A DNA stretch of 64,000 nucleotides from a virus (IMGVR_UViG_3300037502_000519:1039-65038); one strand, 5' to 3'; shown: positions 3,091 through 19,322, counted from the stretch's first letter. Numbers and translations: made by a program. Notes: generated by a model not told the origin, from the sequence alone.

Positions 3091-5051
3091 TTTGCATCTC
3101 CATATCGTTTTGCGGAGTCGATCTCAGCCGCTAGTGGTATCCCCGGCATGTACTTCGGCTCCATGACCATCTGCGCTAAAACCCAAGTTTTAGCGTCCTC
3201 TTCTTCTGTCTCAGGTACAAGACAGACAACCTCGTCGTGAACGGTCAACAAGCACGGGTACCTTTCTTGTATCCGTAGCATGCCGTCCGTCATGACGCAC
3301 CTAGCCACTGCCTGAACAATGTTTTCAGTCAGTTTCCCCCCATATAGCTTCTTATGGGTTGGGCCGTACTCCCACTGCATGCGGCCTTTATCGTCCGCTT
3401 TTCCTAGGATGGGATTATATCGCAGGGCCATACCGCTTGGCAATACGATCCGCTCCTTCTCAAACTGGATGCACTTGTGTGCATACGTATGCCCCTCCAC
3501 CAAACTTCTTTTGATTAAGTTCTGGCAGATCTCCCAGAACTGCACCACGGGCTGTGCGGCGTCCCGGTACTTGTCGATGATCTTCTTGGCAGACACGGCG
3601 TGTACCAACAACTCATCATCGGTACAGGTGTGAGGTATCTCTCTGAGCCGCTTGCCGTTCTCCTCCCACTCCAGAAACTTGGTGATGTACTCTGCGTTCA
3701 CGCCAAGCTGTTTGGCAAACGCTTTGTCGTATCTTGTCGGAGGTGCGCCCAGGAACCCTGTCAACAACTGCGCCGCGAACGATGCCCACCCTAGCCCATA
3801 GCCTGCGCCTAGCAGGGCCGACTTGGCAGACTGACGGAGCGCTGGGTGACTCTCTTTGCTAAGCCCCGGTATGCCGAACATCTGCGCACCGAACATAGCG
3901 TAGGCATCCTGCCCTGACTTAAAGATGTTGAGCAGATCGTCGTAGTCAGCCAGCCACGCCAGCACACGCGGCTCGATCTGTGACAAGTCGCACACCACCA
4001 AGGTGTAGCCTGCCGGTGCCATGATCGCCCTGCGCAGGAACGACCCACGCTTGAGGTTCTGGAGGTTTAGCCCTGACCCCTTGCTGGCAGACCAGCGCCC
4101 TGTATGTGCGCCGTAATAGTTAAGGGGTACCGGTAGCGTGCCGCGTTGTGCAATGTCAAGGAACCGCTGTGCGCGTGTACGTTCCAGTGTTGATTTAACT
4201 GCCAGCCGCGCTTCACAAAGGAGCGCCACATCCTCGTCATCGGCGTTGAGAAGCGCCTGGAATAGTGCATCGTTCTTAGCAAGCGCAAGCGCCTTCTGAC
4301 CCGTGGTCTTACTAATCTTAATCGGCGGCTCAACACCCAACTGGCGTAGCAGTTCGCCAAACTGCGGGTTGCTTGCCAGGACTGCTTCTTCAACACCAAG
4401 ACGTAGAAGAAGTGATTCACGCTTTGTTCTCTCTTCATCGATAGCCGCACTCAACATCTCCTTATCTAGTTCTAGTATCGGGTTGATGAACATCTTGAGC
4501 GTCATGTCTATCAGCCGTAGCTCTTTGGCAGGGTAGCCCTTGATGAGTCTCTTGAAAACTTCTTCGCACAGGAACGTGTCATGCGCACAGTAGTCGGCGA
4601 GTTCTTTCTCTATCTCTGGCGTCAGATCCTCCAGCCCGTCTGTGCTGTGCACGGCTTTGCCCTTGGGCGGCAGGCCGAACTCCTCAGATAGTTTTGCTAG
4701 GCTGTTGCCCACCTCCACACCGCGTAGCGCACGGGCCATAGACAGCGAGTCGAAGATGAAGCACGGCTTCACCCCGTAGACCCACGACAGTATGGCGACA
4801 TCGAACTGTGCGTTGTGCGCCAGCACCGCTGTCTCTGACCAGTCTATTGAGGAGAAGAGGTCTGGCAGTTCGGCGTGGCTGTACCAGCGTGTGTTGTCCT
4901 CGCCGTAGTCTTTAATGCAGGCACCGAACGCCTTGAACTTCTCGTTGCGTACGTACTGTTCGGTGGTTAGTTTGCTGAGCGTGTAGTCTTTACTAGACCA
5001 GCGCGTCTCAAAGTCGATTACTACTATGCGCTTGTATGGCTGCTTTGACAT
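3087..5051 (-). CDS. polA: Family A DNA polymerase with 3'-5' exonuclease domain
   Basis: Exo I DFET, Exo II HNAQFD, Exo III YCAHD; TGRWS; motif A DLSQIEPR; motif B RQSAKSALLGAGYG; motif C VHDE. Confidence 0.95.
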   Translation of the reverse strand: MSKQPYKRIVVIDFETRWSSKDYTLSKLTTEQYVRNEKFKAFGACIKDYGEDNTRWYSHAELPDLFSSIDWSETAVLAHNAQFDVAILSWVYGVKPCFIFDSLSMARALRGVEVGNSLAKLSEEFGLPPKGKAVHSTDGLEDLTPEIEKELADYCAHDTFLCEEVFKRLIKGYPAKELRLIDMTLKMFINPILELDKEMLSAAIDEERTKRESLLLRLGVEEAVLASNPQFGELLRQLGVEPPIKISKTTGQKALALAKNDALFQALLNADDEDVALLCEARLAVKSTLERTRAQRFLDIAQRGTLPVPLNYYGAHTGRWSASKGSGLNLQNLKRGSFLRRAIMAPAGYTLVVCDLSQIEPRVLAWLADYDDLLNIFKSGQDAYAMFGAQMFGIPGLSKESHPALRQSAKSALLGAGYGLGWASFAAQLLTGFLGAPPTRYDKAFAKQLGVNAEYITKFLEWEENGKRLREIPHTCTDDELLVHAVSAKKIIDKYRDAAQPVVQFWEICQNLIKRSLVEGHTYAHKCIQFEKERIVLPSGMALRYNPILGKADDKGRMQWEYGPTHKKLYGGKLTENIVQAVARCVMTDGMLRIQERYPCLLTVHDEVVCLVPETEEEDAKTWVLAQMVMEPKYMPGIPLAAEIDSAKRYGDAK

Positions 5052-5307
5052 ATTCTAGGTTCCCCTCATTAATAACAATGGCAACGCCACCTGCGCGGCG
5101 TATCTTCTCTAGTTCTCGTTCTTGTAGTTCTGTTGTCTTGTTGCTCCCCGCTTTGCACTCGATGGCGAAGAAGCACCCCTGGTAGCAACCTATGATGTCT
5201 GGCACCCCGGCACGACCAAAACCCCCCATGAGGGGGAAGAAATGGTACGCGCCGAGTTCATCCAGAATCGCCTTGACCTTCTTCTTTACCTTGGCCTCCG
5301 GCGTCAT
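5008..5307 (-). CDS. VRR-NUC domain nuclease
   Basis: E..V....L ... GVPDIIG ... IECKA ... LQ ... GG pattern. Confidence 0.9.
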   Translation of the reverse strand: MTPEAKVKKKVKAILDELGAYHFFPLMGGFGRAGVPDIIGCYQGCFFAIECKAGSNKTTELQERELEKIRRAGGVAIVINEGNLEYVKAAIQAHSSNRL

Positions 5308-5316
5308 AGCAGTGCC

Positions 5317-5499
5317 CTACCAATAGAAGTCAGGGGGTCTGGCGTCTGTGCTTTTCCCCACTTCGCCAGTTCGCTGGGGCGAACGCGGGTAAATGGATTC
5401 ACGGGATAGGGCATGGATGCGGTCCAGGAGGGATCGTAGGTACTCGACCTCTCTAGCTCTTTCTTCAAGTCTACGCTGTAGGTTTTTGATAACTTCATC
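5317..5499 (-). CDS. Small hypothetical protein(s); two overlapping frames, real gene uncertain
   Basis: Overlapping ORFs 5304-5534 and 5317-5589 fill the gap in the operon; start not resolved. Confidence 0.3.
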   Translation of the reverse strand, partial: DEVIKNLQRRLEERAREVEYLRSLLDRIHALSRESIYPRSPQRTGEVGKSTDARPPDFYW

Positions 5500-5585
5500 T
5501 TTATCCTCCATTGGGCCGCACGCTTTCTGCCCACACAAGTATGGCGCTGGACGCACGCACGATGTTTTTACTAATGTTCTCGATC

Positions 5586-5921
5586 TCAAGAACGTCTTGT
5601 TCGCTTAGCCTTGGGTTTGCGCACAGGGCTTGCAGTCTTTCTGACGACTGCTTCAGGGTTACTACTGAGTTCGCTGGGTCGTTGATTGCTGTTAATTGCA
5701 TGTAACACCTCCAAGAGTTTTTCAAGATAGTGGATGCCTTTGCTAATTTCCTGCGGGGATTCATCCTTGGCCCCCATGCGCATGATGTACTTCAACGCGC
5801 CACCGCGATAATAACCAATACGTTGATCTTCAGGCCACGTGTCTACAACGTCCCACGGCTCAACGCCCATAGCTTTGTAATGCGTGCCGCCAACTTGTTT
5901 GTCTCTAGCGCTCATGATCAC
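5586..5921 (-). CDS. DUF3310 family protein (T7 gp1.7-like, putative nucleotide kinase)
   Basis: QVGGTHYK...EPWD...GALKYIMR.G.K...KGIHYL signature. Confidence 0.8.
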   Translation of the reverse strand: MIMSARDKQVGGTHYKAMGVEPWDVVDTWPEDQRIGYYRGGALKYIMRMGAKDESPQEISKGIHYLEKLLEVLHAINSNQRPSELSSNPEAVVRKTASPVRKPKAKRTRRS

Positions 5922-6190
5922 TCCTTCACAGGTTGTTTGTTAGCCCACAGATTCACACAGGTCTGCTCCAGATCTAACGACGGTGGGTTCGTCTTTAGTG
6001 CGTCCTTGATGCCCATGTTGTACGCCTGCACAACGTCCTTGGGCATAGTCAACTGGCTGGCATCTGGCTGTGCAGTAAGTTTGTTGTAGACCAGAACAAC
6101 CAACAGCATCACAAACATACCGAACATAGCGCCGATCCAGAAGCGCTCATCGTGATCGCGGTAGAACTTAGTTTCTTGTGTGTGGTTCAT
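5918..6190 (-). CDS. Hypothetical membrane protein
   Basis: One hydrophobic segment FWIGAMFGMFVMLLVVLV; ATGA coupling; SD AAGGAG. Confidence 0.65.
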   Translation of the reverse strand: MNHTQETKFYRDHDERFWIGAMFGMFVMLLVVLVYNKLTAQPDASQLTMPKDVVQAYNMGIKDALKTNPPSLDLEQTCVNLWANKQPVKE

Positions 6191-6528
6191 GCTTTTTCTC
6201 CTTGATAAATTTTAGAATGCCATTTTGTGATGAGCCTTCCATGCACGTTGCGATCATTGGCTCTCACCCATCCTGCACCTTCTATGATGTTTTCTTTTAT
6301 GGCTTGGCGTGGTATGGCACCCCATGCCCTAGTATCTGGTGGGAAGGGTAGATCGGGGTGCGAAAGACGGACTTCTTCTGTGGTAAAAAACTCGTGGGTC
6401 TTTGCATAAGATACGAACGCATCGAACGCTGTTCCTCGCCATGCCAATCCTGCATTATCAGCGGCAACTTCTGCCGCCCTGTGCCCAAGGGCAAGACCTT
6501 CGTGGATTTCTCGTTCTTGGTCGGTCAT
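6187..6528 (-). CDS. Hypothetical phage protein
   Basis: SD AAGGAG; ATGA overlap; RAWGAI...W.S pattern. Confidence 0.7.
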   Translation of the reverse strand: MTDQEREIHEGLALGHRAAEVAADNAGLAWRGTAFDAFVSYAKTHEFFTTEEVRLSHPDLPFPPDTRAWGAIPRQAIKENIIEGAGWVRANDRNVHGRLITKWHSKIYQGEKA

Positions 6529-6743
6529 GTGTTTTTCTCCTTTTCTGCGGTTTCGTAGCCCGCTACAAACCCCTTATGCCATGCTTTATGCCAGCATAGG
6601 CACCACATCTCGTAGTATCCCCGTTGTAGCGGAAATGAAAACTCTGGCTCTTTAAAATACTCCTTTACATCTTTGCGTTTAATAAACGCTTCCCATGCCT
6701 TGTCACGCTCTGGGTTTTTGACTGGTATGTTGTTTAGTTTCAT
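6525..6743 (-). CDS. Small hypothetical protein (modular array), probable start MKLNNIP
   Basis: ATG 6743 behind AAGGAGAAGAATAC; ends EKEKNT*. Confidence 0.65.
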   Translation of the reverse strand: MKLNNIPVKNPERDKAWEAFIKRKDVKEYFKEPEFSFPLQRGYYEMWCLCWHKAWHKGFVAGYETAEKEKNT

Positions 6744-6937
6744 GTATTCTTCTCCTTTAGTTTGGCTTCGATCTGGTCGAACAACTTGCGGGTATAGCCC
6801 TTGATAGGGGTCTCTCCCCACGGGCCGATGATTTCTTTGATCTCCTCGTCGGTCAGACCAACCCATTGTTTGGCGTTCTCTCGTTCACACCCAGACCTCT
6901 TACAAAGACCACCGCAAGACGGGCATTGTCTATCCAT
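6740..6937 (-). CDS. Small Cys-rich protein carrying the WVGLTD...IEAKLKEKNT module
   Basis: CPSCGGLC..SGC N-terminus plus shared C-terminal module. Confidence 0.7.
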   Translation of the reverse strand: MDRQCPSCGGLCKRSGCERENAKQWVGLTDEEIKEIIGPWGETPIKGYTRKLFDQIEAKLKEKNT

Positions 6938-7244
6938 TGTTCCGCTCCTTTAGTTTGGCTTCGATAGCTCGGGCAAACTTCGCAATGTCTTTAGGCAGTG
7001 TCGGCTCCTCTGCTGGGTGGAAAGGCCAGAGTTGCTGATACTCCAGCCAAATTGCCTCATCCGTCAGCCCAACCCATTCACGGTCACGTGCTCTTATAAA
7101 AGCGGCTCGATAGTCGTACAGTTGATGGGTAAGCTGATGGTTTTCATCACGCAATTTCTCCACCACACACAACAAACACTCGCCCTGAAAATCTTCATAG
7201 CCTTGCAAATGATCTTTGTGGCACACGACCGTAATCTTGTTCAT
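6930..7244 (-). CDS. Small protein carrying the WVGLTD...IEAKLKERN module
   Basis: SD AAGGAG; ATGA overlap; shared module. Confidence 0.7.
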   Translation of the reverse strand: MNKITVVCHKDHLQGYEDFQGECLLCVVEKLRDENHQLTHQLYDYRAAFIRARDREWVGLTDEAIWLEYQQLWPFHPAEEPTLPKDIAKFARAIEAKLKERNNG

Positions 7245-7864
7245 GTGTTCTTCTCCTTTAGTTTGGCTTCGATGGCAGGAAAAATGTCAGTCCAAAGCCT
7301 TCCTTCGTAATTTTTTAGCAAATCAACCATCTCACCATCCGTCAGCCCAACCCATTCTTTTGATGGTGCGGGTAAATTAACCCTTGCAAACCTAACGCCA
7401 GCAAGAAAAGCAGCGTAGTTGTCGGACTGCTCTGCCGCAATTTCAACGTCACTTGATTCTGGCTCAAGCCAAAATAATTCTCCAATTTGCTCTGCCGTGT
7501 ACTCAGTAAAATCGTTGCCGCCCCAATGGACAAGTGTTTTTCCAGAGGTAGAAGTAGCCCATACGGTGCAAAGTTCGTCAGTTTCAATACACCTCAAAAG
7601 GTTCCCACGGCGAAGTTTGATAGGCTCATGTCGATCTTTTGCCGTTTCATCGACACGTTCTTGCGATATGTCGCTGGCGTGTACAGGTGCGGTGTAAACA
7701 TTCGTTTCGGAGTAATACAGTTTCCCTGCCATATCCAACCGCACTCTTATTTCTCCGTCTACAAGCCACGCCACAGGCTCTTGCTTCTCTGCCTGCTCTG
7801 CATACTCTGGCGAAGCGCAGACGTAACATTCTTTAGACGTTAATCCATGTTCGCATTTAGGCAT
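7241..7864 (-). CDS. Modular protein (EQAEKQEPV and WVGLTD...IEAKLKEKNT modules), probable start MPKCEH
   Basis: ATG 7864 behind AAGGAGAAGAATCA; shared modules. Confidence 0.7.
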   Translation of the reverse strand: MPKCEHGLTSKECYVCASPEYAEQAEKQEPVAWLVDGEIRVRLDMAGKLYYSETNVYTAPVHASDISQERVDETAKDRHEPIKLRRGNLLRCIETDELCTVWATSTSGKTLVHWGGNDFTEYTAEQIGELFWLEPESSDVEIAAEQSDNYAAFLAGVRFARVNLPAPSKEWVGLTDGEMVDLLKNYEGRLWTDIFPAIEAKLKEKNT

Positions 7865-8183
7865 TGATTCTTCTCCTTGCTCTGAAAATTCCACGCACAT
7901 CAGGGTCGTTAACGCCAACGCACTTGTCACCCACTGAGTACTTGACGACCTTGAACTGCATCTCATGTACCAGACCGCAGTCGCAGCATTTCATGAAGTA
8001 TTGCTCCGGGTCGGGGCAGACCCACTCTGACCAATCGCCCTCCTTCTCAACCTCATGCACGATGAAGTCTTGCGGCAGACCTTCTTGCTTCTCTGCCTGC
8101 TCTAACTTTTGGCGCAACTCATCCCGCTGCGCTCGTATGCACTCGGGTCTGTCGCAGTAGTAACTACAAGTATGTGTGTTCAT
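7857..8183 (-). CDS. Modular Cys-rich protein (HTCSYYC..PEC and EQAEKQE modules, CCDCGLVH domain)
   Basis: ORF track; ATGA overlap; shared modules. Confidence 0.7.
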   Translation of the reverse strand: MNTHTCSYYCDRPECIRAQRDELRQKLEQAEKQEGLPQDFIVHEVEKEGDWSEWVCPDPEQYFMKCCDCGLVHEMQFKVVKYSVGDKCVGVNDPDVRGIFRARRRINA

Positions 8184-8389
8184 TTCTCACCCCTTGCTCT
8201 GATTGCTTTTGCGATTCGGTTGCGCTCTTTGAGACATATTTTTAACGCCGTGTAAGACAACGGCTCACCCGTTCCTTCTTCACACACCTTCGCACACGCC
8301 TCACGCTCCTGCTCAATAGCCCACCTTATTGCGTCTCTAGTGCTGGTGTGACCTTGAATGGCTTGTTCTACGATCTCGTCTGTGCTCAT
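8180..8389 (-). CDS. Small protein carrying the EREACAK...RARGEK module
   Basis: SD; ATGA overlap; module shared with the 8954-9127 ORF. Confidence 0.7.
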   Translation of the reverse strand: MSTDEIVEQAIQGHTSTRDAIRWAIEQEREACAKVCEEGTGEPLSYTALKICLKERNRIAKAIRARGEK

Positions 8390-8703
8390 GTGTTCTTCTC
8401 CTTTATTGCTACTGCGATTAGGTCAAGACATCGCTGTGCAGCGTTAGTAATTGACAGGCCCGATACAATCTCCTGTTGAATTTCAACCTTAGTTAATTGT
8501 CGAGTAATTGAGTGGTCTCCAATCCAAATATGCACACCCGCATACCCCACAGGCTCTTGCTTCTCTGCCTGCTCTATGGCTTGGCGTAGTGCGGTGATGG
8601 CTTCGTCTCCTTGACACCGTGTTTGCGGAATCATGACTCCAGCGGTGTGTTTCCTGTAATCTTCCAAAGCCCTTAATGCTTGCTTCATAGCTGAGATGCT
8701 CAT
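8386..8703 (-). CDS. Modular protein (EQAEKQEPV module, KEKNT end)
   Basis: ORF track; shared modules; ATGA overlap. Confidence 0.7.
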   Translation of the reverse strand: MSISAMKQALRALEDYRKHTAGVMIPQTRCQGDEAITALRQAIEQAEKQEPVGYAGVHIWIGDHSITRQLTKVEIQQEIVSGLSITNAAQRCLDLIAVAIKEKNT

Positions 8704-8939
8704 ATCTCCCTCGCTTTCAGCATTGCGTCTGCAATCTCATAAGACCGAATCGCCAAATAATTGGCCGTCACGTCACGCGATTCAGCTACGCGGTCAAATG
8801 ATTCTGCAAGCCCCTGCATTGCTTTAGCCGCAAAGTAATCACGCAGGGTCATTCCGTCTTGCTCTGGCAGCATCACCTCATAGCAGTTGGTATGACTCAT
8901 TCTAGGAAAAGCGGCGTCGCCAGTTTTCTTGTTGTTCAT
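8700..8939 (-). CDS. Small phage protein (AFP...GMTLRDYFAAKAMQG...AY..ADAML family)
   Basis: Characteristic GMTLRDYFAAKAMQG motif, common in proteobacterial phages. Confidence 0.8.
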   Translation of the reverse strand: MNNKKTGDAAFPRMSHTNCYEVMLPEQDGMTLRDYFAAKAMQGLAESFDRVAESRDVTANYLAIRSYEIADAMLKAREI

Positions 8940-8953
8940 TTCTCACCCCTTGC

Positions 8954-9127
8954 TCACCAATTGTCATTGCGGTGTTGATCGTTATCGCGGTCAAGTTCCT
9001 CAACCAACTTGGCAACCGCCTCTCGCTCTGCTTGTATTACCTGCTCTAGCTTCTGGCGTAACTCATCCCGCTGCGCTCGTACGCACTCAGGTCTCTCGCA
9101 GAAGTAACTACAGGTGTGAATGCTCAT
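8954..9127 (-). CDS. Small modular protein MSIHTCSYFCERPECVRAQRDELRQKLEQVIQAEREAVAKLVEE... (57 aa, not in ORF track)
   Basis: Hand-translated; ATGA overlap at 9124-9127; shares modules with ORFs starting at 8183 and 8389. Confidence 0.65.
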   Translation of the reverse strand: MSIHTCSYFCERPECVRAQRDELRQKLEQVIQAEREAVAKLVEELDRDNDQHRNDNW

Positions 9128-9400
9128 TTCCCTATCCCCTTTCTTATCGCCGCCCCACGGTCGTGGACACCGAACTTGTAGTAAATCCTCGCCATGTGCT
9201 TGCGTAGCGTCTCTACTGTCACCTGCACGATCTCCGCTACCTCATGCGTCTCTAGGCCTATGTTGTACAGATGTAGGATTAGCGCTTGCCTAGGCATGAG
9301 AGGCCACTTCTTCCGGGTCTGATACGTGCCCGGATTCTTCCACAACCTCGGCACCCTGCCCTTCGTTTTTCTGAAGGGATCGTGCCACCTTAGTTTTGTT
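9124..9400 (-). CDS. LuxR-like HTH small protein (start uncertain)
   Basis: GLETHEVAEIVQVTVETLRKHMARIYYKFGVHDR matches the LuxR/GerE C-terminal HTH pattern. Confidence 0.6.
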
Positions 9401-9571
9401 AAACGGATCGTGCCAGTTTCGGTGTTCGTACTTTGGTTCGTAGTAGAGATACGCATTGCTTGATCCTTTCTGCCGCGCCAATGTACCCAAGGCAACCAGA
9501 CGCTCTAACTGTTTACGGGCGGTCCGCTCAGAGATTTTTCTTTTCTTGGCATACTCCTTGATGGTAGTCAT
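9290..9571 (-). CDS. Putative winged-HTH protein
   Basis: TIKEYAKKRKISERTARKQLERLVALG HTH pattern. Confidence 0.55.
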   Translation of the reverse strand: MTTIKEYAKKRKISERTARKQLERLVALGTLARQKGSSNAYLYYEPKYEHRNWHDPFNKTKVARSLQKNEGQGAEVVEESGHVSDPEEVASHA

Positions 9572-9900
9572 GCGCCCTTCCCCCCTTTCGACTTATTCTT
9601 GCAAGGCCAGCGTTCTATCAACATCATGCCCACGAGAATGTCAGCAGGCAGGTTGCGGTTTTCAGCGTTCCTGCGTAGGTAGTCGATTGCCATGTCCTGT
9701 ATCTGCCCTAGCGTGACATTAGACGGTATGCAGTGCGACACACTGTCACCATAGTCTGCAAGGCCAGCCAGATAGCCCAACCCATACATGCGTTTGCTAG
9801 TGCTCTCGCTAAGAAGGTCAGAGTACAGTTCATTGCCGGTGTGGAACCCTGCACTCGCCATCGCTGGTACGAACAACAAACTCAATAGTAGCTTTCTCAT
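9568..9900 (-). CDS. Exported protein resembling the Rap1a/Tai immunity family, probable start MRKLLL
   Basis: Signal peptide; TGNELY...GYLAG..D...CIPSNVTLGQ...YL...PC pattern. Confidence 0.65.
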   Translation of the reverse strand: MRKLLLSLLFVPAMASAGFHTGNELYSDLLSESTSKRMYGLGYLAGLADYGDSVSHCIPSNVTLGQIQDMAIDYLRRNAENRNLPADILVGMMLIERWPCKNKSKGGKGA

Positions 9901-10088
9901 ATGATCCCCTTTACGTATTTGTTCTTGACAGCAACGAAGACCTCCTTTGCCACGCCCTCTTTTATGAGTTCGTTCATCGCATGCAGGGCTGTGCTTTTGT
10001 GGCACGCCATACGTTCTGCGATCTGGGTAACTGTCAAGGGTGTCTTGCGTTGTGCCAAGTAACGTTGCAGTTTCTCTTTTACTGTCAT
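9897..10088 (-). CDS. Small winged-HTH protein
   Basis: PLTVTQIAERMACHKSTALHAMNELIKEG. Confidence 0.65.
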   Translation of the reverse strand: MTVKEKLQRYLAQRKTPLTVTQIAERMACHKSTALHAMNELIKEGVAKEVFVAVKNKYVKGII

Positions 10089-10393
10089 TGTTTAGCGCCC
10101 TCCCATGCTTTGAGAAAGTCCATACCCGCCTGGGTCAGCATGATGAAACACTTGCGCCCGTCGTTGTCCTGCGGGTTCTTGGTTTCTTTGATCCACTTCT
10201 TTGCCTTTAGCGTGGCGATCTTCTTGTGCGTGGTGGCAGGTGTAGAGATCTTGTCATGGTGGCAGGCGTCGATAAGTTTCTGCGTGGGGATCATGCCCTG
10301 GAAATCACTGAGCACATCCAACACCCCTACGCATACAAGGTCAACGCCATGCTGTTGTTGTAAAGCTATTACACGAATCGGTCTCATACTCAC
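10085..10393 (-). CDS. MarR-like winged-HTH protein
   Basis: STPATTHKKIATLKAKKWI...DGR...LTQAG MarR wing motif. Confidence 0.7.
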   Translation of the reverse strand: MSMRPIRVIALQQQHGVDLVCVGVLDVLSDFQGMIPTQKLIDACHHDKISTPATTHKKIATLKAKKWIKETKNPQDNDGRKCFIMLTQAGMDFLKAWEGAKQ

Positions 10394-10396
10394 TCC

Positions 10397-11269
10397 TTAG
10401 AAATTAAAACGGTCTACGATGTCTGCCACCTGGGTGCGGATCTCTGTGCGTGCATCGACCTGCTTGCGCAGATCGTCTGTGTCCACGCTACGCAGGAGCT
10501 TCTCCAACTCCACCCGTGCGGCCTCGATGGTCATGTCATTGGTCACATTCAACGCCTTCAAGGCCTCGCACAACTCCAGCCCACCCTCGATCAACGAGGC
10601 GTGGATGCGCCCCTTCTTCTGCTTACCATTGACCTCCTCTACACGCAACTGCTTGAGCATACGGTCTAGGTGCCCCTTGAGTCGGGCCTTGGCATCTGCC
10701 ATAGCCGCCGACACGCGCTCGTCAGCGAGAGACGACAGCTTCTTCTGTAGCTCGGCCTGCGCCTCGTTGCCCACGTCCACACGGAAGTCACCGGCCTTGG
10801 GCACCGGCATGTAGTTCACACGGAACGAGAACTTACTGGCAACTTCTTGTGGGGCTGGGTACTCGCTACGGTTAAACATGTCGCCCAGCGCCATAGCCTG
10901 CGCTGTGATCAACGAGGGGTAGACCTGCACGAACTCATTGACCATGCCCACGAACTCCTGCTCAAACTGCGTCATGCGCTGATTGAATGTCATAAAGTTC
11001 TTGGTAGGAAGCAGGCGGATGCCAGCGTCAGACCAGGGCAGGGTGTTCTCGTACACATAGGTACGCGCCGCATTAACGTGTTGTTGTATGACCTCCAGTT
11101 CGTTACGACCTGCAAGCAGGTGCTTGTTGACCCGAGCGGCATCCTTCGCCGCCGCACGTTTGTTATGCACAACCTCATCAGTTGCCCCCTTGTCTAACTT
11201 GCGTGCGGTCCACATAGGTGCGCTGAACTCAACCAACATGGCGCAGGTATCAATATTGAATCGGCTCAT
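10397..11269 (-). CDS. Conserved phage protein linked to AAA/vWA modules (DUF3150-like)
   Basis: W.ARKLD...K.LL...TLPW...RLLP...Y..L...LG..F...YP pattern; strong SD. Confidence 0.6.
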   Translation of the reverse strand: MSRFNIDTCAMLVEFSAPMWTARKLDKGATDEVVHNKRAAAKDAARVNKHLLAGRNELEVIQQHVNAARTYVYENTLPWSDAGIRLLPTKNFMTFNQRMTQFEQEFVGMVNEFVQVYPSLITAQAMALGDMFNRSEYPAPQEVASKFSFRVNYMPVPKAGDFRVDVGNEAQAELQKKLSSLADERVSAAMADAKARLKGHLDRMLKQLRVEEVNGKQKKGRIHASLIEGGLELCEALKALNVTNDMTIEAARVELEKLLRSVDTDDLRKQVDARTEIRTQVADIVDRFNF

Positions 11270-11288
11270 AGTTATCTCTCCTTTTTTA

Positions 11289-11744
11289 TTAAGACAAACG
11301 CAGAACTTCTATAGTGTTGTTATCTTCATCGATGGCGGTGAGTGACCCGCCCTTACCAAAGACACGGTTTGCATACGACGATGTGGACGAACTAAGTTCT
11401 GCCGCCAGATATTTACCACCGGGTATGACGACATTCTGTCCGGGCTGAAGCGCATCAATAAACGGGCGCACGTAGGCGGTCAGTTCCCCGTACTGGTACT
11501 TGAGGTTGCGCTTACGCATGTGCTTGACGGGCCTAACTTTTACGCGCAACGACTCACCGTGACTGTGCTCATTGCCATCAGCGTCACGCACAAAGTACTC
11601 ACAGCCCAGACTTGCCAGTACCCCCAACAACTCCGTCAGAGTTTTTTGTTTTAGTACGCTCGCTACTTTCACGCTTTTAATTGCGTCTAAGTTTTCTTTT
11701 GTAGGGGTGCGTTTTGTTTGTGTGAAAAGATTTTGCTGTTGCAT
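11289..11744 (-). CDS. Hypothetical protein, probable start MQQQNLF
   Basis: AAGGAGAACACCATG leader at 11742-11756. Confidence 0.65.
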   Translation of the reverse strand: MQQQNLFTQTKRTPTKENLDAIKSVKVASVLKQKTLTELLGVLASLGCEYFVRDADGNEHSHGESLRVKVRPVKHMRKRNLKYQYGELTAYVRPFIDALQPGQNVVIPGGKYLAAELSSSTSSYANRVFGKGGSLTAIDEDNNTIEVLRLS

Positions 11745-11754
11745 GGTGTTCTCC

Positions 11755-12939
11755 TTAAGAGTAGATGCGCAGGGTTTTGCCGTGCGCGGGTTTGAAATGG
11801 TCATTGTTGATAACGCCCCACAACTCTTTACTGCACACCGATGATGGGCAGGCATCGATGTATCCATCTGTCAGCCATATGGCCCCCGATGGTTTGTACT
11901 GCTTGGACTGCACATGCTGAACAACACACTGCGGAGATGTACCGCCGCCACCCTTCGGCGCCAGTTGTTGTGCGATGGCGTCGTACTGACCCTGCACAAA
12001 CGTCTGCTCACCGCGCACCCGTGTGTCCCACCAGATGATGCGAACCAGCGTGGGGTTGATCTGCTTACAGATGTTGGCGATCTCACCGAAGATCACGGGA
12101 TAGACACCAGCCATTGACCCGGATGTGTCGCAGTTGATGTGGATTTCCCCAGACGCCATGTCAAAGTGCGTGGGCATGATGATGCCGAGCGGCAGAAATC
12201 TACGGTTGGGTGGGTTGTAACGAGAATACTCGTCACCCGAAGAAACTTCTTCCCACCACTCCCGCAACGCGCTACGCCAGTCGGTCTCACGGTTTACACC
12301 AAACCCACTGAGAACATCACACTTGCCATCGGCACCAGCCAGTCGCTTCTGCACCATCTCGCCGTGGTTCATGGCGTCTTGTACTTCTTGGCGCAGTTCA
12401 TCCATATCAGCATCGGCAGGCGCAGGCATGTGCGTATCCAACGTCTGTTGACTCTGGCTTTGACTCTGGTCTTGGTTGTTGCGCAGGAGATCCTGCAACA
12501 CATCGACAAACGACCGCCCGAAATACTTACTATTGACAAGGGGGGCAGGCGATGTGGGGCGCTCAACAAACGAGAACCCTGGGTCGGTCTGCTCGATGAA
12601 CCCATTGACCACATAGTCCATCGCCTTGTTCGACTCGTTGGGATACTTCGCCACGATGTCGGCGTAGTCCAGGCAGTGACGCAGGCCAATGTGTAGCGCC
12701 TCGTGGATGTGCACATAGCGCAACTGCTTGCGTGTCTGTGCCAGGGCGAACGCCTCCCCGTAGAAAATATCCTTGCCATTGGTCGCGGCAGTCGGTATGT
12801 CCTTGACCTCCACGCCGCCCATCATCACTGCACCAGACAACACACTGAACTGTTTGTGATTAAGGATGTCAACGTTCACCGCCGTGATGCGTTGACGCGC
12901 AGTCATACGGTCCCACTGTGTCAGCATTTGGGTCGTCAT
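11755..12939 (-). CDS. DUF2201-type metallopeptidase-vWA fusion
   Basis: PTAATNG, HEALH zincin, AMD..VN; C-terminal DTSGSM MIDAS, GGGGT, LTDGY. Confidence 0.88.
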   Translation of the reverse strand: MTTQMLTQWDRMTARQRITAVNVDILNHKQFSVLSGAVMMGGVEVKDIPTAATNGKDIFYGEAFALAQTRKQLRYVHIHEALHIGLRHCLDYADIVAKYPNESNKAMDYVVNGFIEQTDPGFSFVERPTSPAPLVNSKYFGRSFVDVLQDLLRNNQDQSQSQSQQTLDTHMPAPADADMDELRQEVQDAMNHGEMVQKRLAGADGKCDVLSGFGVNRETDWRSALREWWEEVSSGDEYSRYNPPNRRFLPLGIIMPTHFDMASGEIHINCDTSGSMAGVYPVIFGEIANICKQINPTLVRIIWWDTRVRGEQTFVQGQYDAIAQQLAPKGGGGTSPQCVVQHVQSKQYKPSGAIWLTDGYIDACPSSVCSKELWGVINNDHFKPAHGKTLRIYS

Positions 12940-12941
12940 GA

Positions 12942-14081
12942 TTACGCCTTGAAGAACAGACGGTTGTCGGTCAGCATCTCGCCAAACTTACTGACCGTGG
13001 TGTACAACCCCATCGACTCACTCTTGGACTCGGTCACACGGCGCAGGAACAACGACTGCACCTCCGGCTCAAGCCGTGCGATGTATGTTGTGTAGGCCTC
13101 GGCATCGTCACGCGTGCGTGTCTGGGCAATAGACCGGAACACGATGATCTGTTGTGCGATCTTGTTGCTTGGCACTGGCGCGTAGCCAGGATCGTGGAGC
13201 ACCTCGGCATTGCGTGGCACCTGCGCACCGAACCGTATGAACGACATCAGGAGAGAGGCAAATGCTTTGCCCACTGTGCCAGCAAGCGCTTGTTCAAGAG
13301 TGGTGCTATCGAATCCCCCCAGGGCGTAGGCATCGAGGATGTCAGAGGCCGCATGTAGGGTGCGCGGCGACGCATAGGCGTCTTGGACTTCTTGTGGATT
13401 GTAGATAGACGGGTTGTCTTTTGCTTGGTCTTTGCCTGCATATTTGCCTCCTGGTAGATAGTCAACGAACGAGTCCAACACCTGCGGGTTCTCCTCCACA
13501 CAGGCGATCAGGATGGGGTTCAACCCCACGGGTATGGCAAAGTTATTGATCCACTCCTGGGCCGTAGACTTGCGCATCTTCACCACAAGCAACCTACTAC
13601 GCAGGTGGGCGGCAAGGCTGTCACCTAGACCCTCGATGGCAAGGTTGGTCAGCCCGAACACCACAGACCCCGTGGGCATGAAGAACGTACCGATACGGCG
13701 GTCATACATGATGGGCGCGATCATGTTCTTCACATACTGCGGCACCTTGGCAACCTCATCGAAGCAGACCAGCACAGGGCGCTCGCTGTCCCCGCCACGC
13801 TGGTTGGCAAAGCTCAGACCCATCCGCTCGTTAGGCAACTCACGAGACACCCCCCGCTCACGGTCGATGTCAGGCATGAAGAGCGAACCGTCAGACAACT
13901 GCGTGCAGTCGATGGGCGCGGGCTTGACGAAGTCTTTGAAGAACGGATCGGCGCTGAGCGTTTTGTGTAGCCATGTCTTGCCGGTGCCGTTCTCACCCAT
14001 CACAAGGACGGTGCGCTTGTGGCCCACTGCCTTGATCAGATCGATAACTTGGTCGTGCGATAGGAAGTCTTTTGCATCCAT
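12942..14081 (-). CDS. MoxR-type AAA+ ATPase
   Basis: Walker A GENGTGKT, Walker B VCFDE, sensor N, HLRSR arginine finger, SPRT. Confidence 0.88.
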   Translation of the reverse strand: MDAKDFLSHDQVIDLIKAVGHKRTVLVMGENGTGKTWLHKTLSADPFFKDFVKPAPIDCTQLSDGSLFMPDIDRERGVSRELPNERMGLSFANQRGGDSERPVLVCFDEVAKVPQYVKNMIAPIMYDRRIGTFFMPTGSVVFGLTNLAIEGLGDSLAAHLRSRLLVVKMRKSTAQEWINNFAIPVGLNPILIACVEENPQVLDSFVDYLPGGKYAGKDQAKDNPSIYNPQEVQDAYASPRTLHAASDILDAYALGGFDSTTLEQALAGTVGKAFASLLMSFIRFGAQVPRNAEVLHDPGYAPVPSNKIAQQIIVFRSIAQTRTRDDAEAYTTYIARLEPEVQSLFLRRVTESKSESMGLYTTVSKFGEMLTDNRLFFKA

Positions 14082-15227: not shown

Positions 15228-17006
15228 TTAACGCAATGCCTGAAAGGTGGCGTGGTAGAAGTAATGAGTACGGAAGTTGGTCATATAACGGAACGCTCTG
15301 GATGCACCCTCCATGTCACCATACGAACGCACGAGATCCCGCAGGGTAACGAAGCCAACGACACGCTCGTTGCCGTAGTCATCCATGAACCGTGGTGCGT
15401 TGAGATACGCCTCGGCAAATAACTCCGGCATGTCATCACCCCACACGATTGTCTGGTAGGGGAACCCTTCGACAGTATCAGGCGCAACCACTACGACACC
15501 CACCGCACTGTCTGCGTCTGACTCGTGGAAGTACACCTGACCCTCGGCATTGTTGATCACCTCGACGGCGTCATCGGTACGCATCCAATTGCCATTGGGG
15601 TCTTGCACGCACTCATCGATATGCCGATAGTCACCGTCATGCTCGCAGTACACGATGTCGTAGTAGTCAAGGTACTGGTCATGATAGTACTCGCCGTCGG
15701 TCTCACAGAGCACGCATGAGTCGCTCTCGATATGGTCTTCGTTGCCACGCCGTGAGTGTGCCCACAGGTATTGATCAGAACAGCACGAACCGATGCGTAT
15801 GCCGTGGTAGTCAGAGTAGTTCATCTCATCCTCGTCCTCATCTGTGTGACGCCCACACACCTCGCACATGCCACCTATGCGATCCGTCAGCCCGTTGGTA
15901 TTGGTCGCACTGCTCCTGTGCTCACCGTCGGAGTTGGCAACCAGCCAGTACCGCCTGCCATCGATCCTATGTATGCTCACATGCTTGTCATTGCCATCGA
16001 TGTAGGGCATGACATACTGCCCGTCGTCGTGCTCAACCACAAGCAGGCGTGGGTCGTATTGGTACACAGACTCTCGCCGGTAGTCACGCTCCAGCAACAT
16101 ATCGAGCAACGCGTTGGACTCATCACCGTAGACGCGAACGAAGTGCGCCTTGGCAGGATCATCAGGGAACGCAACGATGGCACGCGCCACCACACGGTCG
16201 TCCATCACGCGGTCAGTCAGCCACGCCAGTGCAAAGTCACCAGACGCATAGACCCGCGCTGGATGTATCTCACTGTCGAACGAGTACACATCGCCCTGCA
16301 TACACGAGGCCAGACCACACTCATCCTCACGGATACTGTAGATAGCCTCGAAGTCATCCGCATCCTTGGACATATGGAAGTCCAACTGCTTGACGCCATC
16401 GGCAAGAGAACGGATCTGGTTTTGTGTCAGCGTCTCACCGTAGAACTGTGTGAGGTAGCGTCCGACCTTTGTGCGCACCTGACGGTCACGCTTGCCGTAC
16501 TCAGGCGATGGGGTATAGGCCACCATCGTGGGGTCTTCGGTTGATATGTGTGGGAAGTGCCACCACAGGTGCGGGTTGTCCTTGCCTATCTTGCGTAGCG
16601 TTGCGAGAAACGCAGGGGGTTTGTAGTACTCCGTCACGAAGCGTGCGTTCTCACGCCACACCCAGAACGCAGACTCAGGCATCGCCTCACGCATATACGC
16701 AATGGTGTTAGCGATACGAAACGCCGACCGCTTGTCACTGTCGTCGATGTCGGAGCCAGACTGATACGCCTCGCTGAGTTTGCTTGCGAAGTCATACCCG
16801 TTGAACCTCGGTGCGTCAGCGCCGAACACCGGCTCGCCGTCGACCTGTATTTCGTGGATCAGCTTGCCATTGCCAGGTTCGTTGCGCACACCGCCGTCGT
16901 CGTACAGATTACATATGCGCGTGAGGTGGTAAAGCTCGTCAGTGGTAACGGTTTGCAACACTTGTAGCAAAGCATCTTTGGAATCTATTTTAGACATGAT
17001 GTCCAT
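15228..17006 (-). CDS. Large acidic hypothetical protein with Cys/His-rich repeated C-terminus
   Basis: 592-aa ORF with strong SD; SCM...HP..VY...ARAI...RVYG...PYID core. Confidence 0.8.
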   Translation of the reverse strand: MDIMSKIDSKDALLQVLQTVTTDELYHLTRICNLYDDGGVRNEPGNGKLIHEIQVDGEPVFGADAPRFNGYDFASKLSEAYQSGSDIDDSDKRSAFRIANTIAYMREAMPESAFWVWRENARFVTEYYKPPAFLATLRKIGKDNPHLWWHFPHISTEDPTMVAYTPSPEYGKRDRQVRTKVGRYLTQFYGETLTQNQIRSLADGVKQLDFHMSKDADDFEAIYSIREDECGLASCMQGDVYSFDSEIHPARVYASGDFALAWLTDRVMDDRVVARAIVAFPDDPAKAHFVRVYGDESNALLDMLLERDYRRESVYQYDPRLLVVEHDDGQYVMPYIDGNDKHVSIHRIDGRRYWLVANSDGEHRSSATNTNGLTDRIGGMCEVCGRHTDEDEDEMNYSDYHGIRIGSCCSDQYLWAHSRRGNEDHIESDSCVLCETDGEYYHDQYLDYYDIVYCEHDGDYRHIDECVQDPNGNWMRTDDAVEVINNAEGQVYFHESDADSAVGVVVVAPDTVEGFPYQTIVWGDDMPELFAEAYLNAPRFMDDYGNERVVGFVTLRDLVRSYGDMEGASRAFRYMTNFRTHYFYHATFQALR

Positions 17007-17171
17007 GTTGTTTCTCCTTGTGGTTAGTTTATTAATACGACAGCATCATCAGGATGATGTAGAACAGGCCAAAGGCAAAGGCCAGCCCCATCACCCCCAT
17101 GAAGTCTATGAACATGGCGCGTAACTCCTGCGCCCTGCGGATACGCCTACGGCGTTCGGTTGAGTTGACCC

Positions 17172-17393
17172 TCATTTGATGTCCTTTCTCACAAGTTTGT
17201 CTGCGTCTCTGTAGGCTCTGTCGATGGTGTCAACGACGAACGAGATCAGAAGTTTCTTATCTGCGCCTGCCATCACACCCGCCAGCCCCAGCACCATCGC
17301 CGTGGCTGGCACAACATCGTCAAGGTCTGCACCCTCTAGCGTTGTGTGCAGTTTGTTTACAACATCTAAGTACTCTTCATTGTTTGCGGTCAT
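17172..17393 (-). CDS. Small hypothetical protein, probable start MTANNEE
   Basis: SD GGAGG; ATGA overlap. Confidence 0.55.
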   Translation of the reverse strand: MTANNEEYLDVVNKLHTTLEGADLDDVVPATAMVLGLAGVMAGADKKLLISFVVDTIDRAYRDADKLVRKDIK

Positions 17394-17716
17394 TTCAATT
17401 CCTCCGGTATCTCTACCTCGTCTCCGAGTTTGCTTGCCACATAGCACCGCATGGCGGCGATCAGGGGTGTTGGGCCGTATTGCCTTTGTAGTATCCTGCC
17501 CGCCTCATTGTAGGTTTGAGCAAGCCAAGTTTTATCTGTACCCCAAGGCTCCACCCCAATTCTCTCCCGTTCAATGATCGGTCCACCATGCTCCCACGAG
17601 GTTGATGGGATAAAGAGCACCACTTCCTTGTCTGATTCGTACCAGACTCCGCCGTTACCTTCTATTTCAGACACTGCCCAGTCCAGGGCTGGCCCCTGTA
17701 GTTCACTCGTTTTCAT
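17390..17716 (-). CDS. DUF2591 / NinX-like protein
   Basis: L.G.ALDWAV...PST.W..GGPIIERE.I...GPTPLIAAMRC.V.S..G. Confidence 0.85.
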   Translation of the reverse strand: MKTSELQGPALDWAVSEIEGNGGVWYESDKEVVLFIPSTSWEHGGPIIERERIGVEPWGTDKTWLAQTYNEAGRILQRQYGPTPLIAAMRCYVASKLGDEVEIPEELK

Positions 17717-17814
17717 CTCACACCCCCCACATATTTAAAAGAATCAGCCCACCGCATACGGTGAGCACTAGGAAATAAAACACAAAGATCATCTGTCCCA
17801 TGGTTGTTTCTCCT

Positions 17815-17982
17815 TTACTGTGGTTTCTTTACATACGGCACGAGTGGTGCGCCTTGATATAACTCATGCAAGATCGCCGCAAGCTCCTCGGGATCGTCGG
17901 TCTTGTAGAGCAACTGCTCGTCGGCATACAACTCGTAATAGTCATCATTGGTCCGCTTGATGATCATTTTTTCTACGGTCAT
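17815..17982 (-). CDS. Small hypothetical protein (MTVEKMI...)
   Basis: AAGGAGAAACAACCATG leader. Confidence 0.55.
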   Translation of the reverse strand: MTVEKMIIKRTNDDYYELYADEQLLYKTDDPEELAAILHELYQGAPLVPYVKKPQ

Positions 17983-18075
17983 GGTTGTTTCTCCTTTGGT
18001 TGTGCGGCAGAAGTAGACACTTGAACAGAGCCGCCTGCCGCGTGCGGTCTGTCGGTACAAATTAAGAGCGTGAGG

Positions 18076-18726
18076 TTATGCGGCGCGTTGGTCTGGTTCT
18101 TCGTCTCTGTGCTCAATCGGCACGCGCATGGCTCCGAAAATATCCACGACATACACCTGTTTTGGCGCCGCAATCCTGTAAAACTTTGACAGAATTTCAG
18201 ACGCATCGTCTTCTTTAATTAGTTTTTGCCAGCATACGGGCGCGGCTCGCGCCGTGCGCTTTAGCTCTTTCATCCGTACGAGCATCAATGTCGTTTGCCC
18301 TAAACAAGTTTCTAGGAAGTTTTTTATCTCCGGCGTTGGCGCTTTTTTAAGTCTGCGGTTTATCGTGCGGCTAAGGTTTTTTAGTTCGGATATGACCGGC
18401 ACAAATTGAGGTGCTCTCCGGATACGCAAGGCGCGTATCGCTCCAGCCTTTAACTTTGCCTTGCCGTGTTCAACACGGCTCTTGACTAGCTCCTCGATGA
18501 TGAGCGGATGCACCCCCTCGTTTACGAGCTTCTTTCGGTATTCGCCAGGGGATAGGTCTTTGGAATGCCGCGCGTGCTGTTTGCTACAGGTGTTGCAAAA
18601 CGATCCGACATACTCCATGCGACGCGTAGCGTCGGGGTTTCGGAGCCATGCGCGGGTTTGCGCAAGGGTGGCTACACGGCGGAAATCTTTGGTTTCTTTT
18701 TCAGTTTCACAGTTTGGGCATAGCAT
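18076..18726 (-). CDS. Basic protein with CxxC...CxxC zinc finger, probable start MLCPNC
   Basis: CPNC and CNTC pairs; SD GAGG. Confidence 0.65.
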   Translation of the reverse strand: MLCPNCETEKETKDFRRVATLAQTRAWLRNPDATRRMEYVGSFCNTCSKQHARHSKDLSPGEYRKKLVNEGVHPLIIEELVKSRVEHGKAKLKAGAIRALRIRRAPQFVPVISELKNLSRTINRRLKKAPTPEIKNFLETCLGQTTLMLVRMKELKRTARAAPVCWQKLIKEDDASEILSKFYRIAAPKQVYVVDIFGAMRVPIEHRDEEPDQRAA

Positions 18727-18825
18727 GTGTCTACCTCGTTTAAAAACGCGTCCTGGGATTGTCGCTGTTGTCATGTGTAGGTGGGAGGCCGCGAAACCGC
18801 ACCAGCACTGCATTGTAGTCTTCAG

Positions 18826-19042
18826 TGTCCGAAATGTCCACGAAAAATAACAGAGAAAGCCTCAAAGCCTGAGAATGTTTTTTATTCTTTGTCGGTGTCA
18901 ACTTGTCCACCCCCTCATATATATATATAAAACTATTTAAAAATATAGTTATATAGGACGCTTCGTGGACGCAGGACGGCGGCAAGCCGTTTGCGCGTGT
19001 CCAGGTAGTGCGCCAAAGCACACCAACCCAGGACATTTGTCC
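18826..19042. other. Candidate replication origin
   Basis: AT-rich core at about 18916-18955 flanked by GTCC/GGAC repeats and a GGACATTTGTCC palindrome, in an intergenic gap. Confidence 0.4.
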
Positions 19043-19127
19043 GAGGGTCTTTTTTGACCCCTCCTTACTGCCAGTAAGTTTGTGATACGCAAAGCAAGGA
19101 GGGGGTTTGCTACATCTGTTGCAAAGC

Positions 19128-19295: not shown

Positions 19296-19322
19296 GGTTG
19301 AATCTCCTTAGATGGTTGCGAG

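Follow-up and report, generated by a model that had tools for sequence, protein, structure and literature searches.

A minus-strand array of small phage genes composed as mosaics of short, shared coding DNA blocks

Introduction

It has long been debated, without agreement, whether short conserved linkers guide phage mosaicism or whether random joins sorted by selection account for it. In lambdoid phages, boundary or linker sequences are said to act as crossover points of the mosaic and recombination by phage recombinases is reportedly relaxed, ideas associated with the names of Susskind & Botstein, Clark et al., Martinsohn et al. and De Paepe et al. Here we describe an array of nine small, tandem genes (g2 to g10) at 6525-9127 on the minus strand of a 64,000-nt stretch of viral DNA (hereafter the window), which belongs to an IMG/VR virus record of 65,038 bases (IMGVR_UViG_3300037502_000519) rated complete by CheckV. 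The genes are best explained as mosaics whose parts come from an unnamed and very large pool of phage protein segments, and the process as an evolutionary one that is common to the phage community and not a dedicated device of this phage.

Two described systems come closest. The PeSL cassettes of T4-type phages are repeats among small non-essential early genes, and indels and replacements between close relatives are reported to end there (PMC2839356, PMC4122927). PeSLs are described as intergenic units of a sigma-70-like early promoter and a stem-loop terminator, through which unrelated genes are exchanged (Arbiol et al. 2010, PMC2839356; Comeau et al. 2014, PMC4122927). Mini-circles are reported to arise when neighbouring PeSLs recombine. 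In the gp38 adhesin of T-even phages, glycine-rich motifs lie between hypervariable segments and exchanges are reported within or near these motifs (Trojet et al. 2011, PMC3157838); the same account gives a fixed motif order, with each hypervariable segment drawn from a limited palette (PMC3157838).

Results

The genes of the array, numbered in the direction in which they are read, are nearly all joined to their neighbours via 4- or 8-nt overlaps, with ATGA at most junctions. A preliminary description made from the sequence had reported five repeats among them, A to E, and their identities and coordinates proved exact: 69 of 78 positions for A, 29 of 29 for B with a partial copy at 21 of 21, 22 of 22 for C with a third copy at 15 of 16, 32 of 33 for D with partial copies at 21 of 21 and 20 of 20, and 23 of 23 for E. 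A separate repeat search returned the same families (D1/D3, five junction copies; D2, 91 nt at 87% identity; D4, D5 and D9). The proposal that the genes are combinatorial mosaics of common DNA and peptide modules was upheld, as was module reuse in eight of the nine genes, g3 being the exception. Repetition is concentrated in the array, where 53 repeated 16-mers were counted at 6525-9127; 500 shuffles averaged 0.006 and never exceeded 3. Elsewhere in the genome only 5 of 43 equal-sized windows hold any repeated 16-mer, the highest count being 11, in a glycine-rich fibre gene. Four copies of the 18-nt D junction sequence AAGGAGAAGAACACATGA were found at one mismatch or fewer, all in the array (0.03 expected), and both copies of the E junction are also in the array (0.01 expected). 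The peptide motifs A, B, C, D, F and G are absent from the rest of the window.

At least eight short conserved blocks can be recognised, of which D and E are gene junctions and the others lie in frame inside genes. Their consensus peptides are MSIEAMKQALEALE (block N), RQAIxxAEKQEPVAW (B), APVHASDISQERVDETAK (H), (PLYTxPPQR)WVGLTDEE (C), ARAIEAKLKEKNT with a stop (D), EREACAKVCE (F), AIRARGEK with a stop (G/E) and HTCSYxCxRPEC... (A). Three of these, N (MSISAMKQAL), F (8279-8308) and H (7623-7689), extend the earlier list. A D or E junction spans about 30 nt and combines a protein tail, the Shine-Dalgarno (SD) sequence of the next gene and an overlapping stop and start (ATGA): both carry AAGGAG or AAGGGG, a fixed spacer, an ATG and an overlapping TGA. 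The earlier reading of D as tail, SD and ATGA, within which an exchange retains frame and translation, is borne out. In block G, the rare Arg codon AGG is always used. C and D are genuine repeats but not separate modules as had been supposed; they are the two ends of one C-terminal domain and are spaced about 90 nt apart wherever present.

The surroundings of the blocks were compared by blastn with relatives, defined as the 80 loci with a related polymerase (67-99% protein identity). Homology extends on the polymerase side up to 6045 and returns at 10199-11320. The array lies on the minus strand within a hyperplastic stretch, 6045-10200 (-), of a leftward, translationally coupled early/middle operon; the flanks of this stretch are kept in relatives, and its interior matches the 80 loci only in islands of 27-55 nt at the blocks (C, 7049-7082; D, 7241-7288; E, 8179-8208; B, 8554-8592; F, 8277-8308). 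Some of these islands are 94-100% identical in phages whose polymerase is only about 70% identical in protein. Block F is 100% identical over 32 nt in two loci (L020 and L040) with polymerases 71-72% identical in protein and saturated at silent sites (same-codon fraction 0.41-0.44). Six peptide motifs occur 76 times in the 80 loci, all 76 on the polymerase strand and 75 of them upstream of the polymerase.

The segments next to the blocks reassort. Protein matches in relatives mostly cover only the last ~43 residues (g7, g8 and g9) or the last ~42 (g5). Among 87 D junctions, 22 pairs share a homologous downstream gene, and in 17 of these the upstream gene is unrelated; 20 pairs share an N-terminal part, with an unrelated downstream gene in 16 and an unrelated middle in all 20. 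Block F shows the same behaviour, g5 and the loci L447 and L442 combining N-terminus 1 with middle a, N-terminus 1 with middle b and N-terminus 2 with middle a, respectively.

Where near-identical relatives diverge, the breakpoints fall inside blocks. Over 9144-8553, which covers g2, g3 and g4 in its N-terminal part, contig G031 and the window share 96.6% identity; the match is lost 13 nt into block B, comes back abruptly at block H (7689-7623, 98.5%) and continues at 7466-7239 (96%) beyond a 156-nt indel. A B-by-B deletion linking the two was considered and rejected, since B is followed in G031 by another 33-aa segment and the match is regained at H. Gene order differs as well, the g5 homologue lying before g2 in G031 and after g4 in the window. 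Contig G034 is 97% identical over 11500-9139 and continues with other cassettes, the break lying in the E-like g1/g2 junction. In loci L349 and L400, the ~160 nt that follow B are 80-100% identical to g7, and the sequence ahead of B is no more similar than chance; with g4, the match to these loci extends over only 20-40 nt ahead of B. Gene order and content are therefore not fixed, as had been predicted, even at 96-97% identity. Most mapped breaks among relatives of this closeness lie inside B, H and E- and D-type junctions. The expectation that breakpoints coincide with modules held for B, H and the E-like junctions and failed at 6045/6052, 10199 and 7466.

The blocks are conserved as DNA in unrelated contexts and phage lineages. 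Exact cores of 18-22 nt were searched in viral contigs, with at most 80 loci read per scan, and were found in at least 128 stretches for D, at least 121 for C, 94 for B and 93 for E (18-nt core). Around each core, mean pairwise identity over roughly 70-86 instances is down to the chance level of 0.26-0.29 within 0-12 nt in one direction and within 24-36 nt in the other. Among 19 carrier records at least 90% complete, nine have a TerL homologue (50-74% identity) and ten have none, indicating that the blocks cross phage lineages. The diversification "system" of this phage that had been proposed is thus replaced by a pool of hundreds of contigs, including phages with unrelated terminases.

The same pool is visible in metagenomes, for which four runs (X1-X4) from two studies were compared as Logan contigs in 200-nt bins; uncovered parts in X2-X4 were not counted as absence, except where an X3 contig runs into unlike sequence at 6052. 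The summed contig depth of the bin holding C and D (7211-7411) was 646, 5122, 549 and 610 in the four runs, against 129, 9, 35 and 0 for the phage's own flanks. Many different continuations begin exactly at block edges (7241, 7276, 7082, 8276 and 8308). In genome contigs, a scan for block C gave 88 matches against about 70 by chance (our own estimate, from 17 specified bases and ~600 Gb); 16 of the 80 loci read pass a strict domain test and about six more do so by eye. All carriers are contigs of metagenome-assembled genomes, about ten of them labelled Burkholderiales, Comamonadaceae or betaproteobacterium, evidence too weak for a host to be named from these labels. The open-access literature (PMC and bioRxiv, subscription journals being outside this coverage) held no relevant paper on the block motifs.

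At the protein level, the C-D and F-G domains are widespread early-protein domains without a family name, and they can now be defined as WVGLTD...IEAKLKEKN and EREACAKVCE...AIRARG, with the N-B-LYT framework as a further recurring arrangement. At least 999 proteins of 35-114 aa are homologous to g9, none with a Pfam domain; in the g9-type alignment the last 43 residues are ~95% identical and the N-terminal parts unrelated. A profile of the C-D domain picks out 5,503 cluster representatives (clustered at 50% identity), 292 of them at E <= 1e-10, and among the 150 best matches the domain is nearly always C-terminal, in proteins of 61-288 aa. Two archetypes emerge, the first running MSIEAMKQALEALE, variable, ITALRQAIAEAEKQEPVAW, variable, PLYTxPPQRxWVGLTDEE, variable, ARAIEAKLKEKNT and stop, the second ...ERFAxLVxxxEREACAKVCE, variable, CAKAIRARGEK and stop; in both, the ATG of the next gene lies in the tail or just past it. 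The module proteins belong to no family in Pfam, PHROGs, the ESM Atlas or solved structures: g2 and g4-g9 have no Pfam match even at E up to 10, the best ESM Atlas score (0.75) is to an unnamed cluster, and a fold search of the PDB gave no match with E <= 0.001. That fold search carries little weight because the model of g9, a predicted helix-loop-helix, is only of moderate confidence (pLDDT 65.7). A role in host take-over or counter-defence would be our guess. Six groups of loci (L099/L218, L106/L223, L120, L133/L244, L237 and L570) also carry an acidic motif, DDDDIQxY(K/R/Q)(K/R)P, directly ahead of WVGLTD; it is absent from the window's genes. We take this motif to be reminiscent of the acidic tip of the C-terminus of single-stranded DNA-binding protein.

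Silent sites in the blocks are conserved above expectation, as had been anticipated. Between copies in the window, identical residues use the same codon in 8 of 8 cases for D (3.5 expected), 9 of 9 for B (3.9) and 17 of 23 for A (9.3). For comparisons across contigs, each block was scored in loci picked through a different block. The probability of meeting the same codon was 0.77 for C (0.30 expected), 0.76 for F (0.39), 0.63 for N (0.34), 0.73 for D (0.43) and 0.83 for LYTxP (0.35). Codon-degenerate patterns retrieved 15 distinct copies of the g9-type domain, for which the same probability was 0.70 in C against 0.29 expected and 0.58 in D against 0.42. The middle of this domain, equal to C in protein conservation, gave 0.53 against 0.38. 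Since C exceeds this equally protein-conserved middle at silent sites, the codon data point to a DNA-level effect beyond protein constraint, clearest for C. Part of the silent-site conservation of D comes from the SD codons AAG GAG.

C (7329-7360) and D (7241-7273) are also imperfect inverted repeats of each other, with a mean of 11.2 of 14 proposed pairs over 136 elements, 50 of which have 13-14 pairs. Peptides recoded with background codons gave 9.4 ± 0.09 pairs and slid registers 1.7-7.0, and the preferred synonymous codons in C and D are mostly the pairing ones. Covariation is absent, as partners permuted among the 136 elements still give 11.1 pairs. The duplex energy is -10.3 kcal/mol, compared with -6.5 to -6.9 with a shuffled partner, and the stem is in the minimum-energy fold of four of five elements, though whole-element z-scores are unremarkable (-2.4 to +1.4). 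F-G and N-B have little or no complementarity. The C:D structure was chosen after the sequences had been looked at. Its complementarity may reflect a hairpin for coupling, an aid to template switching or chance in a single ancestral sequence.

The individual genes, all on the minus strand, illustrate how the blocks are combined. Ahead of the array, g1 (9124-9495) encodes a LuxR/GerE-type helix-turn-helix protein (PF00196, 9.1e-08), and its tail AAIRKGIGK, the stop and the next ATG form an E-like junction. g2 (8954-9127, 57 aa) holds block A (HTCSYFCERPEC...RQKLEQ, 9041-9118) followed by a decayed F-G domain, in which an in-frame TGA precedes ARGEK and its stop. An intact version occurs in locus L436, whose ancestor-like form consists of A, EREACAKL... 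and AIRARGEK with a stop. The first copy of the E junction (GAGCAAGGGGTGAGAAATGAACA, 8933-8955, 23 of 23 positions) gives g3 its SD and start. Reading g2 as A-E was right as to module content and wrong in taking E as a translated part of the gene, because E comes after the in-frame TGA and is therefore untranslated at g2/g3. g3 (8700-8939, 79 aa) is without shared blocks and matches phrog_2201 (2.1e-21); its homologue in locus L440 comes after an intact F-G gene.

g4 (8386-8703, 105 aa) runs from the N block through a variable segment, B (8544-8575) and a second variable segment to a D'-type junction (8386-8403). g5 (8180-8389, 69 aa) consists of block F, a variable middle and the G/E junction (8177-8199), and none of its 96 homologues has a Pfam family. 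In g6 (7857-8183, 108 aa), block A (8097-8174) and a partial B (8083-8103) precede a Cys-rich payload, and the adjacency of a g5-like and a g6-like gene recurs in L447. In g7 (7241-7864, 207 aa from MPKCEHG), B (7768-7799) and a beta segment lead to block H (APVHASDISQERVDETAKDRHE, 7623-7689), after which come a payload, C (7337-7354) and the D junction (7241-7273). g8 (6930-7244, 104 aa) opens with a Cys-rich N-terminal region, followed by C (7059-7076), a variable middle and a D ending in KERNNG and a stop (6939-6965); most of its matches span only residues 55-104. g9 (6740-6937, 65 aa) joins a CxxC knuckle to the commonest form of the C-D domain (WVGLTDEEIKEIIGPWGETPIKGYTRKLFDQIEAKLKEKNT, then stop). 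g10 (6525-6743, 72 aa) is a conserved gene in which the tail alone (AEKEKNT, then stop) is a D'-type junction (6525-6542), and its matches in ten loci cover residues 4-66, or up to 71, of the 72 and leave out the C-terminal end. The last variable gene ahead of the conserved polymerase-side block is g11 (6187-6528, 113 aa; phrog_27658), which is absent from the X3 strain (depth 0 at 6206-6406).

The array is part of the replication-side operon, upstream of the DNA polymerase, and its genes are without structural-protein families. No sigma-70-like promoter was found in 5000-11500, compared with 5.4 ± 2.5 expected in shuffles, and terminator-like sites there are at chance (8 against 6.4 expected). 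The array genes are therefore probably read from one long transcript. Given ATGA overlaps at most junctions as well, the junction blocks carry the translation signals. The lack of promoters over these 6.5 kb suggests a long read-through operon or non-sigma-70 promoters.

We read the source phage as uncultured and lytic, from a lake or groundwater, with a genome of about 65 kb. The minus strand has genes for SNF2 helicase, PD-(D/E)XK nuclease, family-A DNA polymerase and DUF927 primase, and the plus strand those for terminase, portal and fibre; no tRNA genes were found in the genome. The closest cultured polymerase is that of Pseudomonas phage KPP25 (32% identity), with Rhizobium phages at 31%, and five cultured-phage records match the array in short pieces only (37-75 nt). 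Inside the hyperplastic stretch, 9568-9900 (-) encodes a 110-aa protein with a signal-peptide-like N-terminus that matches Rap1a, a type VI secretion immunity family (PF18602, 4.8e-15; phrog_3870, 1.3e-17), and would be a phage-borne immunity-like gene. Beside the array, a conserved cluster at 10397-14081 (-) encodes a DUF3150 protein, a 192-aa open reading frame (ORF), a DUF2201 metallopeptidase/VWA protein and an ATPase (phrog_1297). Among upstream small genes at 16952-20030 there are five copies of a 20-nt near-palindrome, TTTGCTACAGGTGTTGCAAA, which may be an operator or phage promoter site, and six copies of an SD/start motif, AAAGGAGAAACAACCATG (minus strand). The sole other repeat-rich place in the genome is 37357-39012 (+), where dozens of GGX-type DNA repeats lie in the gene of a 551-aa glycine-rich protein; this protein matches phrog_2295 and, more weakly, a tail-fibre-assembly family.

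Discussion

We consider it fairly probable that the pattern described here is caused by recombination at the blocks and not by selection acting on random joins; this causal role is an inference, as would be the choice of any acting enzyme. Short-homology (homologous) recombination would act at the blocks between co-infecting phages and between copies in one genome. Exchange inside D or E would swap the whole downstream gene and retain SD, spacing and ATGA coupling, and exchange inside B, C, F or H would swap a protein segment in frame. Recurrent exchange and gene conversion would keep the blocks uniform down to their silent sites, with constraints from the protein framework and the ribosome site acting as well. 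Candidate agents are host RecA, an unrecognised annealing protein or template switching. The genome yielded no recombinase, only the PD-(D/E)XK nuclease and the SNF2 helicase; host enzymes are possible agents of exchange, and the recombinase-independent process that had been proposed is no more than a possibility.

Several observations weigh against recombination at the blocks as the cause. The breaks at 6045/6052 (inside g12, with the contig of the X3 strain ending at 6052) and at 10199 are outside the listed blocks. So is the 156-nt indel in g7, whose edges, in comparison with a 96-98%-identical contig (L609), are a 6-nt microhomology, TGAGCC, at 7461-7466 and 7623-7628 (-). It is the only microhomology-type join seen; the joints otherwise are near-identical blocks of 18-35 nt and not the microhomologies that had been proposed. 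No match to Phage_integrase, RecT, ERF, AAA_24 (Sak4-type ATPase), Rad52 or RVT_1 was found in the genome. Block A was rejected as a widespread DNA joint, its exact 20-mer occurring in only one other contig. As for silent sites, those of D in the g9-type domain are no more conserved than the middle once the SD codons are set apart. The peptides alone, written in random codons, would still keep much of the DNA, such that protein and ribosome-site constraints explain part of its conservation. The loci compared are not phylogenetically independent, many being from related phages and few habitats. Exchange has also been read from assembled sequences, not from raw reads or experiment, and metagenome assemblies may misjoin phages at shared blocks and so inflate long-range "reassortment".

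The strongest rival, which we nevertheless think unlikely, is selection on a protein framework only. The blocks would correspond to what one protein family needs for structure or function (helix caps, strand ends, a C-terminal helix), illegitimate random joining would replace the variable segments, and selection would retain the joins that leave the framework intact, making the blocks a consequence of shuffling. The C-D domain fits this account, as its protein identity stays high beside unrelated N-termini and its position is nearly always C-terminal, and so do the freely varying silent sites of the g9-type middle, the single microhomology indel and the missing phage recombinase (six families). 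Yet the silent sites of the blocks are far more uniform than either codon usage predicts or the equally conserved middle shows, breaks between 96-97%-identical relatives lie inside blocks and not beside them, and E is conserved even where untranslated (g2/g3).

A stronger form of block recombination, which we hold to be doubtful, is that the blocks are a community-wide, in-frame "joint code" in which DNA identity itself is selected or self-maintaining. Phages with unrelated backbones would then build early proteins from interchangeable segments, as in exon shuffling without introns, and swap whole genes with translational coupling kept. The C:D repeat would actively promote exchange of the enclosed segment, for example through template switching induced by a C:D hairpin during replication.

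RNA signals are a very unlikely main reason for the DNA conservation. On this account D and E would be translation-initiation or coupling operators, with a C:D stem that would enclose the variable segment and end by the SD. The composition of the two junctions, the constant AGG in G, and the pairing, duplex energy and predicted stems of C:D all agree with it, and an RNA role is certainly part of the story for D and E. But C:D pairing lacks covariation, its folding scores are ordinary and the structure was picked post hoc; F-G and N-B scarcely pair, and an RNA role leaves the unrelated flanks unexplained.

A dedicated enzymatic cassette or diversification system acting on the blocks (integron-like, akin to a diversity-generating retroelement (DGR), or driven by a homing nuclease) is extremely unlikely. 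The C-D element, at gene 3' ends, with complementary conserved ends and a centre of variable length, has a superficial likeness to attC, and gene order is permuted between close relatives. Against these points, neither a tyrosine integrase nor a reverse transcriptase was found in the genome, the PHROGs "HNH endonuclease" ORF is a DUF2201 metallopeptidase/VWA protein by Pfam, and the blocks are present in phages of unrelated backbones. We therefore rejected the integron and homing-nuclease readings, and likewise a DGR, given no RVT_1 match and variable segments that differ in length and are unalignable, unlike DGR variable regions.

It is hardly credible that the array is an assembly chimera joined at repeats common to more abundant phages: Logan unitigs of the likely source run (X1) do break, with many alternative continuations, at 6913-6942, 7248-7268, 8279-8308 and 8560-8589, where graphs from short-k assembly are therefore tangled, but eight unique pieces of the array and its flanks are in X1 at an even depth of 108.6-131.3, exact repeats within the genome (<=29 nt) are below usual assembly k-mers, independent contigs span the joints in the same order (G031 for g2-g3-g4N and g5-E-A, G034 through g1), and X2 contigs cover 7770-8104 and 8597-8999 with 0-2 differences. 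On the grounds of even depth, short exact repeats and independent contigs across joints, we regard the array as real; some of the long-range combinations in other contigs may be chimeric.

The locus bears on the question of linker guidance with which we began. It is part of a very large natural data set that comprises at least eight DNA blocks, proteins in the thousands, contigs in the hundreds that represent several lineages, and near-identical relatives differing by exchanges that end inside blocks. The in-frame blocks and the tail/SD/ATGA junctions show how an exchange of genes or of protein segments can leave expression intact. As blocks lie both in frame inside genes and at such junctions, the question becomes testable.

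Comparison with known systems places the array near several and within none. Ead/Ea22-like lambdoid proteins are small, mosaic, non-essential and early. Presumably they resemble the module proteins, with a coiled coil followed by "...PVAW...LYTxP", but membership is not supported, as g2 and g4-g9 lack a Pfam match at the permissive threshold used above. One-gene units without promoters of their own, and a 3' element with complementary ends and a variable centre, recall integron cassettes. However, no IntI-type tyrosine recombinase was found (no PF00589 match in the 65-kb genome, with the control matched in 14 of 14 genomes). Unlike attC, the C-D element is translated, its core-site order and consensus differ in our reading, and its complementarity is modest and without covariation.

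D and E match the lambdoid boundary idea in being short conserved gene-boundary sequences. They differ from it in that a ~30-nt junction with three jobs occurs here in more than 100 contigs, comparable blocks lie inside genes and the phage is not lambdoid. Relaxed recombination by a phage recombinase differs too, this genome having no Rad52, RecT or ERF match. As in gp38, conserved motifs stand in a fixed order with hypervariable segments between them (N-B-LYT-C-D; F-G). By contrast, the proteins here are many tandem small early ones and not a host-recognition virion adhesin, there are gene-junction blocks as well, and the pool spans phages with unrelated terminases.

The PeSLs are matched in that short conserved repeats lie among small accessory early genes of a hyperplastic region, and breakpoints between relatives fall in B, H and the E-like junction, with the exceptions at 6045/6052, 10199 and 7466. 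Unlike PeSLs, the blocks here are coding and in frame, or consist of SD and stop/start, and protein segments are swapped as well as genes; promoter-like sites are lacking, terminator-like sites are at chance and the phage is not T4-like. Taken together, the blocks belong to none of the compared systems and are best seen as a new coding, in-frame variant of known phage recombination joints.

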